A stretch of 61,645 bases of DNA from Bdellovibrio sp. GTDB taxonomy: Bacteria; UBA10199; 2-02-FULL-44-16; DYJF01. Shown piece by piece: positions 23,662 through 32,500 of this stretch. The position numbers and the translations under genes are program-made. The DNA is taken from positions 1 through 61,645 of the forward strand of contig DYJF01000003.1 of NCBI GenBank assembly GCA_020723205.1, given 5' to 3'. The notes under the pieces are model-generated. The model worked only from the letters and a program-made list of their open reading frames with translations. It was not told the DNA's origin and did not search any database. Position 1 is the first letter of the stretch; every line of letters begins with the position of its first letter.

Positions 23662-26708
<3,047 letters not shown>

Positions 26709-26725
26709 GCCACGAATCCTAATCG

Positions 26726-26742
26726 TAATCTTAATCGCTTTT
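26726..26742 (+). repeat. 17-nt direct repeat, copy 1 (TAATCTTAATCGCTTTT)
   Basis: Identical 17-mer at 27777-27793. A related inverted version lies at 29460-29486. Confidence 0.8.
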
Positions 26743-26809
26743 CACGGTTAATATGATCGTAGTTCGAGATCTAGAGTCTAGTTCCAGATCAAAGATCTTA
26801 GATCATAGA

Positions 26810-27145
26810 TTACCGACGTAGCCGCATGATCATGGCATAAGCCAAACGAAGCTCCGATTTGAGCTCATCATTGAAAGATGCGGCGATGTAGCCAAAAGCG
26901 CAGATGATATCTAGCGCCGCTGCCGTCTCCGCGATGGAAGCAAGCGAAATATCAAAGAAACGATTCCGCTCTCTTGTTGAACGCCTGCCGTTGCCCTCCG
27001 CTAGATTGAGCATTGAACTAGAAAATGCCCTGTTAAGCTGATCTTCCAGATAATATGTGCCCTTGGGCAGTTTTTCTATTAGCGTTGGCAACTTTCTTGC
27101 GACATCTAGCAACACTACATAGCATTTCAGTTTTTGGTGATTCAT
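26810..27145 (-). CDS. Four-helix-bundle protein, 23S rRNA-IVS / Avd-like family (P1)
   Basis: 111 aa, MNHQKLKCY…LEDQL.RA…LNLAEGNG…ER.RFF.ISL.SIAE. This is the typical IVS-protein family pattern. Confidence 0.85.
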   Translation of the reverse strand: MNHQKLKCYVVLLDVARKLPTLIEKLPKGTYYLEDQLNRAFSSSMLNLAEGNGRRSTRERNRFFDISLASIAETAAALDIICAFGYIAASFNDELKSELRLAYAMIMRLRR

Positions 27146-27257
27146 GGGTTCCTCCTAGTTTGTTTTTGGCCTCTTGCCTCCTCAATGAGGGTGGGGAGGC
27201 AAGAGGCCATAAACAAAAGGAGGATTTTATGTTCAACCACCAAAAACTGAAATGCTA
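27120..27257. repeat. Palindromic core of module 1 (central hairpin + both RBSs + 5' ends of P1 and P2)
   Basis: A perfect 14-bp stem joins 27168-27181 to 27195-27208 around a 13-nt loop. CCTCC (27151-27155) faces GGAGG (27219-27223). 27120-27139 is the exact reverse complement of 27238-27257 (20 nt inside both CDSs). Confidence 0.9.
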
Positions 27258-27564
27258 CGAGTTTGCACTAGATGCGGCAAGAAAGGTGCCAACGCTGATT
27301 AGAGGATGGCCATCTGGTTATGGATATCTGGAAGATCAGCTCAAGCGTGCGGCATCAAGCGTCGTGCTCAACATTGCGGAGGGCAACTACAGGTATTCAG
27401 TGAAGGAGCGGAGGCGGTTTTTCGAAATCGCAAGGGCATCTGCGGGTGAAGTCTCCTCGATTCTGGATATCGCGCACGCCTATCGTCTCGTCGCAGATTC
27501 AGACTACGCCCTGATGCAGAATATCCTCATCCAGATCGTCAAGATGCTATATCATTTGCGGTAA
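27229..27564 (+). CDS. Four-helix-bundle protein, 23S rRNA-IVS / Avd-like family (P2)
   Basis: 111 aa, MFNHQKLKCY…LEDQLKRA…LNIAEGN…ERRRFFEIARASAGEV. The ATG at 27229 follows AAGGAGG. The longer ORF-track start at 27055 is rejected. Confidence 0.85.
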   Translation: MFNHQKLKCYEFALDAARKVPTLIRGWPSGYGYLEDQLKRAASSVVLNIAEGNYRYSVKERRRFFEIARASAGEVSSILDIAHAYRLVADSDYALMQNILIQIVKMLYHLR

Positions 27565-27567
27565 CCT

Positions 27568-27630
27568 CCGTTCGCCCTGAGCTTGTCGAAGGATGAACGG
27601 TGCTCGCTCAGGACAGGCCTGTCGAAGGGC
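27568..27630. repeat. Degenerate GC-rich palindromic (REP-like) element
   Basis: CCGTTCGCC-ctgagcttgtcgaa-GGATGAACGG, followed by a half copy GCTCAGGACAGGCCTGTCGAAGGGC. The word tgtcgaagg occurs in both halves. Confidence 0.5.
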
Positions 27631-27641
27631 CTACGCGCCCG

Positions 27642-27675
27642 CCTTCCCCGCCGCTTGCAATAGGGTGGGGAGGGG
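27642..27675. repeat. Third hairpin carrying the conserved AGGGTGG loop motif
   Basis: CCTTCCCC (27642-27649) pairs with GGGGAGGGG (27667-27675). The loop ends …GCAATAGGGT, like the loops of the two module hairpins. Confidence 0.5.
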
Positions 27676-27683
27676 AGTAAAGA

Positions 27684-27711
27684 ACCACTGGTAACGCGAC
27701 CACTGGTAACG
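27684..27711 (+). repeat. Tandem direct repeat, 2 x ACCACTGGTAACG (15-nt period)
   Basis: Read directly: ACCACTGGTAACGcgACCACTGGTAACG. Confidence 0.85.
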
Positions 27712-27776
27712 GAGCAACGGCAATATAACTATTTATTTTTAGCCATTTACGGGTGGGTCAAGTGCAGGTGGCAATC

Positions 27777-27793
27777 TAATCTTAATCGCTTTT
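27777..27793 (+). repeat. 17-nt direct repeat, copy 2 (TAATCTTAATCGCTTTT)
   Basis: Identical to 26726-26742. Confidence 0.8.
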
Positions 27794-27829
27794 ATCGCCG
27801 ATCTTTTCTGGGGGATGGTCAGGTAGGGC

Positions 27830-28189
27830 TTAGCCCTTTTCTCTTGCCTCTGCGGCCCATGTGCTCATGAATGTGGTATATGCCGTTTCGGCATCGAGCC
27901 AGATGGTGTTCGTAAAGGCGGGATGTGTGTGGCAGCGCGAGCCGTGCAGGACGCTTATATCGAGATTGTTGAAGATGAACGTGTAATAATCCATCGTCCG
28001 GCGGCATGGGGAGAAGACGTCCTCGGTCACCTTCACGTATGAGATGTTGGGTATGAGCCCGTACTCGCCGTCGGTATTGGGCGATTCGAAGTCGGCCCTG
28101 CGATAGCCGTTCCTCTCAAGCGCACTCATCAATCTTGCGCTCTTGAAATAATCCGAAACAAAGTTCGTGATCTGTGAAATGAAGCTCAT
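27830..28189 (-). CDS. Hypothetical protein (119 aa)
   Basis: ORF with an internal ATG at 28189 (MSFISQITNF…) preceded by a GGGAG-like RBS. No family recognised. The longer version to 28282 would overlap the DUF167 gene. Confidence 0.45.
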   Translation of the reverse strand: MSFISQITNFVSDYFKSARLMSALERNGYRRADFESPNTDGEYGLIPNISYVKVTEDVFSPCRRTMDYYTFIFNNLDISVLHGSRCHTHPAFTNTIWLDAETAYTTFMSTWAAEAREKG

Positions 28190-28256
28190 AAGTATAAGGT
28201 CTCCCTTATACCTATTATCGGCCGAGAAGGGGGCAGAAGTTTCGTCTGAATGAAAT

Positions 28257-28538
28257 TTAGATGCCCCGCAAAAGACGTTCAATTTCGGGTCGTTTGACGC
28301 CCTTTATGAAAAGGAGCTTGTTCCGGCCGGTCTCTCCGCGGATGATGGATACGGAGGATTTGGGCACGCAAAGGGTGTGGGCGATGAACTCTATGAGCGC
28401 CTCGTTGGCGCGTCCTTCGATTGGAGGCGCCGCGAGTGCAACCGCCAGCGCGCCGCTTCTTTCCCCCTTCAGCCGGCTCTTTGATGCGCGCGGGGTGACA
28501 TAGCATTCGATCGTCACGCCGTCCTTGTGGTCTTGCAT
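28257..28538 (-). CDS. DUF167 (YggU-like) protein
   Basis: 93 aa: MQDHKDGVTIECYVTPRASKSRL…ALAVALAAPPIEGRANEALIEFIA…SVSIIRGETGRNKLL. This is the typical DUF167 pattern. The ORF-track start at 28709 is rejected. Confidence 0.75.
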   Translation of the reverse strand: MQDHKDGVTIECYVTPRASKSRLKGERSGALAVALAAPPIEGRANEALIEFIAHTLCVPKSSVSIIRGETGRNKLLFIKGVKRPEIERLLRGI

Positions 28539-28585
28539 GTTAAGCACAAGGTAATTAATGCAATAATTGATGCCAATACGCAACG

Positions 28586-28936
28586 TCAGAAATTTGAAGG
28601 AGGATTCATCAGCGCCCAGAGCATCTTGCTGACTTCGGTGAGACGCGATTTGACAGCGCTGGAGGCCATCGGAGGCATCAGGCCGAAGGAGGACGCAAGA
28701 TCGATGCATGCGGAGACCTCCACAGCCGAAGCACGCGCGATCTCGAAGAAGCGGCGGCGTTCCGCTGCGCTTCTGCGCGCGTTTCCTTCCGCGATATTGA
28801 GAACGACCGAAGCAATGGCGCGGCGCAGCTGATCATAAAGATAACCAAGCCCGCGGGGCCACCTGGCACCCTCCTTGCTCAACCCCTCTGCTAACCTTAC
28901 CGCCCTTTGGTAGCACTCCAGTTTTTCGTGCAACAT
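28586..28936 (-). CDS. Four-helix-bundle protein, 23S rRNA-IVS / Avd-like family (P3)
   Basis: MLHEKLECY…YDQLRRA…LNIAEGN…ERRRFFEIARASAVEV. The ATG at 28936 lies 5 nt after GGAGG. The closest paralog by eye is P2. Confidence 0.85.
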   Translation of the reverse strand: MLHEKLECYQRAVRLAEGLSKEGARWPRGLGYLYDQLRRAIASVVLNIAEGNARRSAAERRRFFEIARASAVEVSACIDLASSFGLMPPMASSAVKSRLTEVSKMLWALMNPPSNF

Positions 28937-29046
28937 AAACACCTCCTAGTTTGTCAGTTTTCGCTGCCCTCTCATAAAGGGTGGAGGGCAGCGAAAACTG
29001 ACAAACAAAAGGAGGAGTTATGAATCACGAAAAACTGGAGTGCTAC
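28910..29046. repeat. Palindromic core of module 2 (central hairpin + both RBSs + 5' ends of P3 and P4)
   Basis: A perfect 23-bp stem joins 28949-28971 to 28984-29006 around a 12-nt loop, TCATAAAGGGTG. 28910-28930 is the exact reverse complement of 29026-29046 (21 nt inside both CDSs). Confidence 0.9.
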
Positions 29047-29355
29047 AGGCAGTTGGTTTCAATAGCAGAGGAGGTTGCAAGGAGGGTGGCCAGGTGGCCC
29101 AAAGGACACGGTAACCTTGTCGATCAGCTGCGCCGCGCAGCGACCTCCGCGGTTCTCAATCTGGCGGAAGGCAACGGAAAGAGCAGATACAGACGCGAAC
29201 GCCGCTGGTTCTTTCGAATCTCGCTCGGCTCGATCGCCGAAGTTGCGGCGGCTCTTGATCTTGCCCACGCATTCGGGCTGATCGAAAGCAGAGGGCTGGA
29301 TTCTCTCAAATCACGGCTTCGCGTGGCATACGTGCAAGTGAGAGCCCTCCCATGA
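29020..29355 (+). CDS. Four-helix-bundle protein, 23S rRNA-IVS / Avd-like family (P4)
   Basis: 111 aa, MNHEKLECY…VDQLRRA…LNLAEGNG…RERRWFFRISLGSIAEVAAALD. The closest paralog by eye is P1. Confidence 0.85.
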   Translation: MNHEKLECYRQLVSIAEEVARRVARWPKGHGNLVDQLRRAATSAVLNLAEGNGKSRYRRERRWFFRISLGSIAEVAAALDLAHAFGLIESRGLDSLKSRLRVAYVQVRALP

Positions 29356-29459
29356 GCCCTGTTCTCTTCTCACAGTTGCTCAGTTATCAGTTCTCTCGCT
29401 CTTTTCTCTGTTCTCTGCGGTTAACGGCGATGATCAAACGATGGAACAGCGATAGAAGT

Positions 29460-29486
29460 GCGATAAAAAGCGATAAAAAAGCGATT
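29460..29486 (-). repeat. Inverted, reiterated version of the AATCGCTTTT boundary motif
   Basis: The plus strand reads GCGATAAAAAGCGATAAAAAAGCGATT. The reverse complement, AATCGCTTTTTTATCGCTTTTTATCGC, resembles 27783-27799 (AATCGCTTTTATCGCC). Confidence 0.55.
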
Positions 29487-29533
29487 CAGAATGGCATTGA
29501 CACTCAACCAGTATTGAAGCTACTTCAGCCCTG

Positions 29534-32500
29534 ATGCAGCACTCGCCCTTCGTACATCTGCACCTGCATACATATTACAGCCTTCTCGACGGCGCCATCC
29601 CCATCGAGGCGCTGGCTCTGCGCGCAAAAGAGCTCAAAATGCCCTCGGTCGCCATGACCGATCACGGCAACCTCTTCGGCGCCATCGAGTTCTACGAAAA
29701 GATACAAAGGCACGGGATAAAGCCCATAATCGGCTGCGAGGCCTATGTCGTTACGAAGGGCTCGAGAAAGGACAGGGGCGGCCAGTTGGAGGGCTTCACG
29801 TCCCATCTGGTCCTTTTGTGCAAGAATAGGGCTGGTTATAGGAACCTCTGCCGTCTGATAAGTTCAAGTTATTTAGAAGGGTTCTATTATAAACCACGAA
29901 TAGATAAAGATCTATTGCGTGAGCATAATGAGGGACTGATCGCACTGTCGGGTTGCCTCAAAGGAGAGATATCAAGGGCGCTTTTTGAGGACCGGATGGA
30001 GGACGCCAGGGCCGCAGCCCTTGAGTACGCCTCCATATTCACGAACGACCGTTTCTTTTTGGAGCTTCAGGATCAGGGTCTGGAAGGGCAGGCAAAGGTC
30101 AGAAAAGGGATCATGGAGCTGGCGAGAGGGACGGGGCTGCCGCTCGTTGCCACGAACGATGTGCATTATCTTTCGAGGGAGGATTCATCCGCGCAGGACG
30201 CGCTTCTTTGCATACAGACGGGAACGACCATAGACGCGAAGGACCGCCTGCGCCTTATGAGCGACCAGTTCTATTTGAAGTCGCATGACGAGATGGCCTC
30301 TCTCTTCAGCGATTGTCCCGAGGCGATATCGAACACCATGGCGGTCGCGGAGCGGTTGAATCTGGACTTCGATTTCAAGACCTACCATTTTCCGAAGTTC
30401 GTACCGCCGGAAGGCGTGGACCTCGCCAATTATCTGGAGCAGCAGGCGAGGGACGGCTTGAAGAGGCGCTGGTCCTCCATCGTCGCGGTCCAGAAGAAAG
30501 ACGAGGAGACGCTCAAGGCGGAATACGAGGCGCGACTGGTGGAGGAGCTCTCGCTCATCAAGACGATGGGTTTTGCCGGATATTTCCTCATCGTCGCCGA
30601 CTTCATCGGTTTCGCAAAGACGAAGAACATTCCTGTGGGCCCCGGACGCGGCTCCGCGGCCGGCTCGCTCGTCGCCTATTGCCTCAATATAACGGACATA
30701 GATCCCTTGGTGCACGGACTTCTCTTCGAGCGTTTCCTGAACCCGGAGCGCATCAGCATGCCCGACATGGACATAGACTTCTGCATGCGCCGCCGCGACG
30801 AGGTCATAAGATACGTCGCGGAAAAATACGGCAATGTCTCGCAGATAATAACGTTCGGAAAGATGAAGGCGAGGGCGGTCGTGCGCGACGTGGGCCGCGT
30901 GATGGGCATGGCCTACGGTGAGGTGGACCGCATCGCCAAGCTCATCCCCGCGACGCTCAACATGACGCTCGCACAGGCCCTCGAGATAGAGCCGAAGCTC
31001 AAGGACGAGGTGAAGAGATCGCAGGAAGTGAAGCGCATGATAGAGATCGCGCGCTCGCTTGAGGGTTTTCCGCGCCATGCGTCCACTCACGCGGCGGGCG
31101 TCGTCATCTCCGACAAGCCGCTCTCCGAGTTCCTGCCGCTGTATCTCGGCCAGCACGATGAAATAGTGACGCAGTTCGACATGAAGGCGGTCGAGAAGGT
31201 AGGCCTCGTCAAGTTCGACTTTCTGGGCCTCAAGACGCTGACCGTCATTGACGATGCGGTGAGACAGATCGAAAAACGGCACGGCATAAAAGTGGGAATA
31301 GACACGCTTCCGTTCGACGATCCGCTCGTCTATTCGGAACTGTCGCACGGCGACACCGCCGGCGTCTTCCAGCTCGAAAGCTCCGGCATGACCGACCTCG
31401 TGATGCGTTTGAAGCCCAGCGTCTTCGCTGACCTGGTCGCTCTGGTCGCGCTTTTCCGCCCGGGTCCCTTGGGCAGCGGCATGGTGGACGATTTCATAAA
31501 CCGCAAGCACGGCAAGACGCCCATCAGGTACGAGCTTTTGCAGCTCGAGCCGATACTCAAAGACACGTACGGCGTCATCGTCTATCAGGAACAGGTGATG
31601 CAGATAGCGAACCGCTTGGCGGGGTTCTCGCTGGGAGAGGCGGACATACTGCGCCGCGCGATGGGAAAGAAGAAGGCCGAGGAGATGGCCAAGCAGAAGG
31701 AGCGCTTCATCGGCGGCTGTGTCGCGAACAAGATATCAAGGGCGAGGGCCGAGCGGCTCTTCGATCTTATAGCGAAATTCGCCGAATACGGGTTCAACAA
31801 ATCTCATAGCGCGGCGTACGCGCTGGTCGCCTACCAGACCGCGTATCTCAAGTTCCATTATCCGACCGAGTTCATGGCCGCGCTGCTCACCACTGAAAAG
31901 GACAACGCGGACAAGATCCTGCAGTACATCGGCGACTGCAAATCGAGGGCGATAAAGATCCTGCCGCCGGACGTCAACGAGAGCGGCCGCGATTTTTCCG
32001 TCGTCGCCGACAACACGATCCGCTTTGGACTCGCCGCCGTGAAGAACGTGGGTGAGGCGGCCATCGACAGCGTCGTTGCGGTAAGAGAGGCGGCGGGGCC
32101 CTTCACGTCGCTGTTCGACTTCTGCGAGAGGGTGGATTCAAGAAAGGCCAACAAGCGCGTGATAGAATCGCTCATCAAATGCGGGGCGTTCGATTTTGCG
32201 GGAGCCCCCCGCGCCGCGATGTTCACATCGCTCGACCGCGCCATGGACATGGCGTCCTCGCATCAGCGCGACAGGCAGACCGGCCAGGCGCGGATATTCG
32301 ACCTGATGGGCGAAAGATCGCAAACGCCCGAGAAGCTCGAAGATGTTCCCGAGTGGCAGGAGCGCCAGCTTCTGGCCTTCGAAAAAGAGTCGCTGGGGTT
32401 TTACATCACCGGCCATCCGCTCGCGCGGTTCGAGACGATGCTCGCGCAGTATGCCAACTTCGACACGTCCACGGTGGCCTCCGCCAAGGACAAGCAGGAG

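Follow-up and report, generated by a model that had tools for sequence, protein, structure and literature searches.

Intervening sequences (IVSs) that carry an open reading frame (ORF) encoding S23p are found in the 23S rRNA genes of Coxiella burnetii, Leptospira, Brucella and Haemophilus, and the 23S rRNA IVSs sit in helix 9, 25 or 45. The PF05635/S23p/Avd-like family to which the encoded protein belongs has been known for decades from these rRNA elements and is common, and we know of no function shown for it outside diversity-generating retroelements (DGRs). Here we describe four genes of this family in a 61,645-nt stretch of DNA from Bdellovibrio sp. (assembly GCA_020723205.1, contig DYJF01000003.1; “the window” in what follows), where they form two head-to-head pairs, the left and the right module, between guaA and dnaE. 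Each pair consists of one gene of a type that we call A and one of a type that we call B and, to judge from the sequence, belongs to a cassette made up of the divergent A and B genes, a central Watson-Crick hairpin of 29-37 bp and arrays of 6-11 nt repeats at the outer ends. We favor, with some reserve, an explanation in which the interval holds two independent insertions of such a small, palindromic and selfish cassette on either side of ancestral host genes, with a mechanism as proposed below.

Comparison with Described Systems

In the Coxiella 23S rRNA IVS the S23p ORF is preceded by tandem heptamers and excision is by RNase III; the element has a GC content below that of its genome and has been called selfish (PMC4990558). 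The cassettes have in common with the 23S IVSs the protein family (PF05635, S23p) and short tandem repeats beside the gene, which are heptamers in Coxiella and 6-11-nt arrays in the cassettes (PMC4990558), and inverted flanks are a further hallmark that members of the PF05635 family share with the IVSs. Both are small, AT-richer, patchy in their distribution and regarded as selfish and horizontally acquired, and both have long double-stranded stems, predicted in the cassettes, of the kind cut by RNase III. The differences concern position and design: the cassettes lie between protein-coding genes and not in rRNA, they carry two paralogous genes where an IVS carries one, and their stem is central and holds the ribosome-binding sites, whereas the IVS stem encloses the gene. 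Furthermore, the cassette genes are under strong purifying selection, whereas the Coxiella ORF has been reported to be decaying and is probably untranslated. The cassettes are apparently related to the rRNA “intervening sequences,” and read as a palindromic two-gene variant of the IVS/S23p selfish cassette, with a movement and a function that we infer. An earlier note on this DNA had held that the four genes represent neither rRNA IVSs nor a DGR nor an insertion sequence; it was right in that rRNA, reverse transcriptase and transposase are absent, but the exclusion of IVSs was too strong, as the hallmarks listed above are shared.

Free-standing genes for four helix bundle proteins (TIGR02436; XCC0516, BT_0352) belong to the same sequence family and share the fold, and those sampled have 6-nt repeats of the same kind as those found after both cassette stop codons. 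They are, however, single genes whose solved proteins are homopentamers, whereas the cassettes hold obligate A+B pairs and a central hairpin, and in the cassettes the arrays run the opposite way with respect to the gene. Avd is known as a ring-shaped pentamer within an RNA-protein complex. Like the cassette proteins it is a four-helix bundle of similar size (TM 0.63-0.80 between the P2 model described below and Avd of the Bordetella phage DGR, 4DWL/8UB7), but it is undetectable by sequence, the architecture differs, and the cassettes have neither a reverse transcriptase nor a template/variable repeat pair.

Among small elements without a protein of their own for mobility, the miniature inverted-repeat transposable elements (MITEs), the repetitive extragenic palindromes and bacterial interspersed mosaic elements (REP/BIME) and the IS200/IS605-related palindrome-associated transposable elements (PATEs) resemble the cassettes in being small, multicopy, intergenic, transposase-free and hairpin-rich, with inverted termini and decaying copies. 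The cassettes differ from them in their two conserved, selected protein genes, in their low copy number (about 3-5 or more per genome) and in their termini, which are short-period arrays and not defined inverted repeats, and no partner transposase family was identified. Multiple copies, defined ends and the contrast of occupied and empty sites are features shared with insertion sequences, but the PF05635 pair makes up the sole genes of the cassette, which has no transposase. Unlike an invertible switch, the locus has no recombinase, and its central segment lies in the ancestral orientation in relatives. The cassette itself is not an rRNA IVS, a DGR, an insertion sequence, a known defense system (PADLOC) or a known RNA family (Rfam).

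Two Head-to-Head Modules of PF05635 Genes

Six genes occupy the interval from the guaA stop codon (26708) to the dnaE start codon (29534). Four of them encode IVP/S23p four-helix-bundle proteins: P1 (26810..27145, minus strand; A-type, 111 aa) and P2 (27229..27564, plus strand; B-type, 111 aa) form the left module, and P3 (28586..28936/28942, minus strand, with the ATG at 28936 as the likely start; B-type) and P4 (29020..29355, plus strand; A-type, 111 aa) the right module. All four proteins score above the curated cut-offs of PF05635, the 23S rRNA intervening-sequence protein or S23p (62-79 bits versus 33.8), and of TIGR02436, the four helix bundle protein (58-74 bits versus 24). The earlier note was thus correct in placing four IVS/Avd-family genes here as two head-to-head pairs, and a scan of all six frames with these hidden Markov models (HMMs) found no fifth member of PF05635 or TIGR02436 in the 61.6-kb window. 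It was also correct in describing the left module as more AT-rich than the flanking core genes, the GC content being 47.2% against 59.2% for guaB-guaA and 57.1% for the whole window. Its statement that no rRNA, reverse transcriptase, transposase or integrase accompanies the genes is likewise upheld, since the 61.6-kb window is free of rRNA and none of the 10 large ORFs scanned within about 10 kb on each side matched one of these three enzymes (5 of the 10 matched no Pfam family). The genes around the modules of the window are guaB, guaA, DUF167, dnaE, hflX and other core genes.

The AF2 model of P2, the one protein of the four that was modelled, has four helices (pLDDT 94.8) and was matched by Foldseek to XCC0516 (2GSC; TM 0.86-0.89) and BT_0352 (2RLD; TM 0.75-0.86), each of which is a structure with five chains. 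In sequence comparisons the family profile found 2GSC (E = 1e-17) and gave no match to Avd.

The four proteins fall into two types. Type A, to which P1 and P4 belong, is marked by the motifs LNL(A/S)EGNG and FF.IS..SI(A/S)E, and type B, with P2 and P3, by LNIAEGN.R, FF.IARAS..E and KML(Y/W). Each of the 19 modules that were aligned protein by protein, 15 of them intact, consists of one A and one B. Across the 15 intact modules from other genomes, the nearest neighbor of every protein is its own type from another module, in every region of the sequence, and A and B are therefore old paralogues, carried along together. Within the window, the earlier note's pairing of P1 with P4 and of P2 with P3 holds for the C-terminal halves, which are 57% and 45% identical (32-36% for the other cross pairs), but not for the full-length proteins, which are nearly equidistant at 41-53% identity; the first 30 or so residues are closest to those of the partner in the same module (64% and 54%). 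Two sublineages can be told apart by their N-termini, sublineage I (MNHQKLKCY/MFNHQKLKCY) including the left module of the window and sublineage II (MNHEKLECY/MLHEKLECY) the right one. P2 is 82% identical to a protein from the metagenome-assembled genome (MAG) Ac.bin.255 and 50% identical to P3. Both A and B are under strong purifying selection (dN/dS 0.05-0.19), with values of 0.14-0.19 for P1, 0.10-0.13 for P2, 0.05-0.11 for P3 and 0.10-0.11 for P4.

A Dispersed Family of Cassettes

A search with P2 found about 100 relatives, almost all of them metagenomic, and scans of species-representative genomes and of JGI metagenomes yielded 160 loci (individual loci are cited below by L numbers). The census of paired modules like those of the window came to 29 further head-to-head modules, of which 23 are intact, in other MAGs and metagenomes. 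Every one of the close relatives is in a divergent pair; the distant relatives, from Verrucomicrobiota, Planctomycetota, Ignavibacteria, Bacteroidota and others, are single genes. Copies are dispersed within genomes, with at least five in MAG Ac.bin.255, at least five in CAXXGI01 and at least three in CAYWXY01, and the same head-to-head pair recurs in unrelated neighborhoods. Copies within a genome are 91-95% identical over 838-934 bp, and the homology between copies ends abruptly, from a few to about 130 bp past the stop codons. The same abrupt ends are seen between L097 and L098, which are 88% identical over 902 bp. The right module of the window has 85-87% DNA identity with L096 and L103 across some 860 bp, and the flanks there are unrelated. 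The size of the cassette is about 0.85-0.95 kb.

Decayed modules were also found (L020:2619-3280, L046:3501-4243, L051:3507-4243 and L126:553-1260), in which the center of the palindrome, with the hairpin and the two N-termini, is missing or has given way to 57-260 nt of sequence that is in part array-like; instability of long palindromes would be expected to produce central deletions of this sort. In Ac.bin.255, two mutually inverted modules of different sublineages lie 2.7 kb apart (L002:2574-6336, JBGSNL010000009) and flank an FHA/PEGA/TPR gene with their A sides inward, and modules may cluster more often than chance would have it. The chromosome of Candidatus Uabimicrobium sp. HlEnr_7 (L016-L022, L040) carries at least eight dispersed PF05635 copies, in each of which the HMM match is in two pieces about 6 nt apart; this may reflect a shared frameshift or insertion, or a divergent subfamily.

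Occupied and Empty Sites

The genomes closest to the window by GuaA are L085 (Ac.bin.255) and L086, at 87% identity, and L088/L089, at 82%. In L085 and L086 the gene order is guaB-guaA ... DUF167(-)|dnaE(+), the start codons of DUF167 and dnaE being 57-60 bp apart, and in L088/L089 DUF167(-) follows directly after guaA and dnaE is not adjacent. No PF05635 gene is present at this locus in L085, L086 or L088/L089, so that the guaA-dnaE junction of the window is an occupied site where related genomes have an empty one, and Ac.bin.255, without a module at this locus, has at least five on other contigs. The DUF167/YggU gene of the window (28257..28538, minus strand) is a host gene found head-to-head with dnaE in relatives, and both its presence and its orientation are ancestral. 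From about 29485 onward, in the dnaE promoter region and right after the terminal array of the right module, the window is again homologous to the empty sites. Given the empty orthologous sites and this point of resumed homology, the right module appears to be an insertion of about 0.9 kb between DUF167 and dnaE, and the left module an insertion after guaA. The B-side end of the right-module insertion is probably at 28557..28585 (minus strand), the left junction being placeable only to about 28557-28607, and the flanks are too diverged from the empty sites for exact insertion ends and target duplications to be placed.

In a group of uncultured bacteria the module thus has several copies per genome, and related genomes may have it or lack it. 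No description of its paired architecture or of its arrays was found in Rfam, in PADLOC or in the searchable literature, which yielded the Coxiella IVS paper and passing mentions. A mobile cassette of an undescribed kind had been suggested for the whole 2.8-kb interval; each module does behave as an inserted, multicopy unit, but the interval is not that unit.

Central Hairpins

The gap between the two genes of each module holds, as first described for this DNA, a near-perfect hairpin of about 75 nt, with a folding energy of -50 to -58 kcal/mol on either strand. The left-module hairpin (27151..27223) has 32 bp, of which 31 are Watson-Crick pairs, and the apex TCAATGAGGGTGGGG, and the right-module hairpin (28942..29015) has 35 bp, of which 34 are Watson-Crick pairs, and the apex TCATAAAGGGTGG. 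With z-scores of -9.7 to -13.9, they fold better than all 200 shuffled sequences. At the base of both stems CCTCC pairs with GGAGG, which is to say that the Shine-Dalgarno (SD) sequence of one gene pairs with the complement (anti-SD) of that of the other.

The hairpin covaries. Stem lengths are 29-37 bp, with 0-2 G-U pairs, in the 15 hairpins that were measured first, and those found later fold alike. The stem sequence is different in nearly every module. RNAalifold on a plain MAFFT alignment of 24 hairpins gave a core of 16 pairs with compensatory double changes at every pair: 90.1% of the cells are paired (62.7% after shuffling), 112 cells hold double changes (35 after shuffling) and the covariation score is 0.761 (0.26 after shuffling), a value reached by none of 500 shuffles. 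As controls, slid alignments scored 0.15-0.30, and one-sided changes numbered only 9. Among close relatives the hairpins diverge by 7-20% while dS of the flanking genes is 0.5-1.4, and several of the differences are compensated (for example, CAG...CTG versus CAT...ATG).

The similarity of the two arms of a module falls outward, from about 0.88 in the stem through 0.73-0.81 in the first 60 coding nucleotides to about 0.5 at the 3' ends, and A and B of one module share derived states in helix 1, such as DQTKRA in both proteins of L013. This pattern suggests either gene conversion from the center of the palindrome or a co-adapted interface between A and B.

With respect to the A-to-B direction, the apical motif, approximately CAT(A/G)AGGGTG(A), can point either way. 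The segment found in both orientations is the hairpin loop only, of about 5-12 nt, and it is so found only between different copies. In L097 and L098, which come from one metagenome, the loop is exactly flipped; these modules being 88% identical, the loop between the long inverted arms is therefore inverted within evolutionarily short times. A role of the loop as a flippable -10 box was considered and rejected: CATAAA is a weak -10, there is no consistent -35 across modules, and the scan found no site. In the source run, a lone short contig carries a joint from 28822 to 29199 that leaves out 376 nt around the center of the right module. This joint, whose shorter side measures only 30 nt, was set aside; it is probably an assembly-graph artefact between paralogous sequences, and could be a center-deleted variant.

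Terminal Arrays

Short-period arrays come after both stop codons of a module. Those of sublineage I consist of (A/G)ATCNT hexamers, and those of sublineage II of GAGAAC-type hexamers and phased ATCGC repeats of 11 nt. On the A side of the left module, an outer 6-nt periodic array (26715..26742, plus strand; AATCCT AATCGT AATCTT AATCGC TTTT) holds the first copy of the 16-mer AATCTTAATCGCTTTT, and a 6/7-nt array of opposite polarity (26768..26812, plus strand; AGATCT/AGATCAT type) lies directly downstream of the P1 stop codon. The second copy of the 16-mer is held by the terminal 6-nt array on the B side (AATCTAATCTTAATCGCTTTT; 27773..27793, plus strand); in other modules the B-side array lies directly after the B stop codon, at the end of homology. 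The A-side terminal region of the right module (29359..29484, plus strand) comprises CTCTTC/GTTCTC repeats of 6-7 nt at 29359-29417 and 11-nt phased GCGATAAAAA repeats at 29449-29484, and is conserved in L096, L103, L020 and L023.

The exact 16-mer occurs at 26727 and 27778, and an inverted copy with 2 mismatches lies at 29477-29492, in the 11-nt phased array at about 29448-29485 (3 matches versus 0.49 expected); the AATCGCTTTT motif is thus present at the boundaries in two direct copies and one inverted copy, as had been noticed. It is the outer end of the terminal arrays, and in L009/L002 the homology between copies breaks off at exactly this point. The outer arrays of modules have opposite polarity on the two sides, and their pairing is weak. 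Coding potential of the arrays was considered and rejected, neither read-through of the B stop codon nor small hydrophobic ORFs being conserved between modules.

Single-Gene Relatives

Single PF05635 genes from many phyla (L024-L084, L105-L169) are bracketed by inverted 6-nt arrays such as TCTTGCTCTTGCTCTTA ... TAAGAGCAAGAGCAAGA, examples being L024:3870-4420, L032:3880-4430, L036, L045, L047 and L065. Often the bracket fills exactly the space from the host stop codon to the next start codon. The flanks of single genes show a lag-6 autocorrelation of 0.41-0.44 versus about 0.25 at other lags, and exact inverted matches of at least 12 nt surround the gene at 36 of 112 loci versus 8 of 336 controls. 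The reversed polarity of the arrays relative to the gene can be seen in the 40 nt downstream, on the sense strand, where purines make up 38% in pairs versus 54% in singles.

One could go further and see in the IVS-protein genes with their short-period inverted arrays a widespread, recombinase-free selfish class of which the rRNA IVS is a special case, with a ring-forming protein (here an A/B heteromer on the central palindrome) that recognizes the arrays or the hairpin and drives spread or removal from host transcripts. We offer this tentatively, and think it rather doubtful.

Proposed Mechanism

The cassette would work most like an ORF-bearing IVS that left rRNA and became a head-to-head dimer. 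A and B are predicted to assemble into a ring-shaped hetero-oligomer that binds nucleic acid, a prediction which draws on the homopentamers XCC0516 (2GSC) and BT_0352 (2RLD) and on Avd; it is the place of the Avd pentamer in an RNA-protein complex that suggests nucleic-acid binding by A/B. Any transcript across the center would be antisense to one gene and sense to the other, and would fold into a duplex of at least 29 bp. Such a duplex would hide both ribosome-binding sites and offer a substrate to RNase III, as in the ORF-bearing 23S rRNA IVSs, and the hairpin may in this way gate or process the expression of both genes symmetrically. If folding were needed on both strands, this would explain why pairing is Watson-Crick only. 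The terminal arrays are putative cis sites used in the spread of the cassette, and the spreading activity, which is not encoded nearby, would be supplied in trans or by the A/B proteins themselves.

Several observations weigh against independent insertion by a cassette of this kind, or against parts of the mechanism. Homogenization of the palindrome at the DNA level by template switching predicts the same pairing pattern: the perfect complementarity of the arms could be maintained in the DNA itself, through template switching or gene conversion of palindromes, instead of by selection on RNA structure, and the near absence of G-U pairs fits such homogenization equally well. A scan found no sigma-70-like promoter at either hairpin. 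Mismatches in the arrays that flank single genes show no strand bias (63 of G-U type versus 58 of A-C type), and an RNA stem is therefore not supported for these arrays. The possible target duplication at the right module is the 3-bp ATT, which is too short to count where the empty sites differ by about 20%, and the counterpart in L003 of the 16-bp direct repeat around the left module consists of similar, non-identical arrays. No recombinase, reverse transcriptase or nuclease was found in or beside any module, most of the other loci having been screened for PF05635 only, and no relatives were found in viral contigs.

Alternative Explanations

The four genes might be resident chromosomal genes, that is, divergent small regulators or RNA-binding proteins with a palindromic operator, which arose by ordinary paralogy and are immobile. 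This would account for the strong purifying selection on both genes and for the missing mobility gene, and divergent gene pairs that regulate themselves classically have a palindromic intergenic region. It would not account for the absence of the modules from the orthologous site in close relatives, one of which, Ac.bin.255, carries at least five elsewhere, nor for near-identical, sharp-ended copies in unrelated contexts, the deviant GC content of the left module or the decayed, center-deleted copies L020, L046, L051 and L126, and a stem sequence that changes with nearly every module speaks against an operator recognized by one common factor specific for a DNA sequence. We consider such residency unlikely.

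Another alternative, that of a two-protein addiction or defense module (toxin-antitoxin or anti-phage) with hairpin and arrays that are merely regulatory, concerns function only and is compatible with a mobile cassette. The compactness of the two-gene unit, its strict A+B pairing and its multicopy, patchy distribution all suit this idea, and PF05635 has been listed among CRISPR-associated domains (PMC10910872) and among domains near DGRs (PMC10053308). However, none of the six proteins of the interval has a PADLOC match at E<=0.01, A and B are paralogues of one fold without a recognizable catalytic domain, genes that are divergent and not co-transcribed are unusual for toxin-antitoxin pairs, and single-gene relatives are far commoner than pairs, all of which makes an addiction or defense function improbable.

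The earlier note had seen the whole 2.8 kb as one composite element, a nested or invertible cassette in which two inverted copies of a module flank an invertible or mobile segment of about 1 kb. The A/B order is indeed opposite in the two modules of the window, AATCGCTTTT-type motifs stand at three boundaries (two direct, one inverted), and L002 offers a second inverted pair, 2.7 kb apart around one gene. The right module nevertheless did not arise as an inverted, later diverged copy of the left: they fall into separate sublineages, and their same-type genes have 47-55% DNA identity, whereas relatives elsewhere have 78-87%. Nor is it a simple reverse complement: where the two hairpins are asymmetric, in the loop TCAnnnAGGGTG and in the bulges, they run the same way on the plus strand and are not inverted. 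DUF167(-) next to dnaE(+) is the ancestral arrangement, its orientation unchanged in three relatives that lack the modules at this locus, and modules about 50% identical are too dissimilar to invert by homologous recombination. The two modules of L002 have the other polarity, with the A sides facing inward, so that there is no consistent composite design, and opposite orientation in two cases has a chance probability of 0.25. The locus was found in one sequencing run (subsurface metagenome, contigs), in a single arrangement and with no alternative orientation. The ancestral orientation of DUF167, the low identity between the modules, the absence of a recombinase and the single arrangement together effectively rule out one invertible or composite cassette, which we regard as highly improbable.

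Least tenable of all is a DGR remnant, with orphan avd genes left after the loss of the reverse transcriptase and template repeat, for although fold and family are common to Avd, there is no reverse transcriptase among the ORFs scanned within about 10 kb and no template repeat/variable repeat pair (a direct repeat of about 100-150 bp) in 26500-29700, the 23 further intact modules have no retroelement gene among the called neighbors of those examined (most loci being screened for PF05635 only), and the similarity is to the IVP/XCC0516 branch (E 1e-17), with Avd undetected by sequence.

Other Features of the Interval

Beside DUF167, the segment between the two cassettes holds a gene for a hypothetical protein of 119 aa (27830..28189, minus strand), which is a near-ORFan and belongs to neither cassette. 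The protein has no family match, and a comparison with 1.8 billion representative proteins gave just three relatives, all distant. One of these, 2216 aa long, aligns with it in 14 stretches, and the 119-aa protein may thus be a rare repeat domain. An ORF of 60 aa at 29352-29534 (plus strand) overlaps the P4 stop codon (ATGA) and the dnaE start codon (TGATG), consists of low-complexity arrays throughout and is unlikely to be a gene.

A REP/MITE-like palindromic repeat (CCGTTCGCCCTGAGCTTGTCGAAGG...CTCAGGACAGGCCTGTCGAAGGGC; 27568..27630, plus strand) is inserted between P2 and the terminal array, outside the cassette proper. It occurs once in the window, and its contig depth is about 55x versus 6.5x in the surroundings, with many loose ends. 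A short hairpin with the promoter-like motif TTGCAA-N17-TAAAGA (27642..27683, plus strand) is likewise inserted between P2 and its terminal array, and recurs beside the L096 and L103 modules. It shares GGGTGGGGAGG with the apex of the left hairpin, these being the two only occurrences in the window (0.02 expected). The motif, in the form TTGCAA-N17-TAAA(G/T)A with the spacer TAGGGTGGGGAGGGGAG, stands beside modules of both sublineages and is found at L096:2976-2997, L096:3926-3947, L103:1334-1355 and L103:2876-2897; in the window, two direct repeats of 13 nt (27684-27711) and then a T-run come after it, and it may drive a small RNA. A search of 26400-29800 against Rfam with permissive filters returned only sub-threshold matches to eukaryotic microRNA precursor models, that is, to generic long hairpins.

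Implications

As independently inserted, selfish cassettes, the A/B modules would combine selected proteins, a covarying hairpin with ribosome-binding sites, conserved arrays and occupied and empty sites, each of which is experimentally approachable. If the inverted 6-nt bracket holds family-wide, the “intervening sequences” would be one face of a broader group of small selfish elements without a known recombinase, and the same bracket would explain many of the unannotated intergenic insertions of 0.5-1 kb in environmental genomes.

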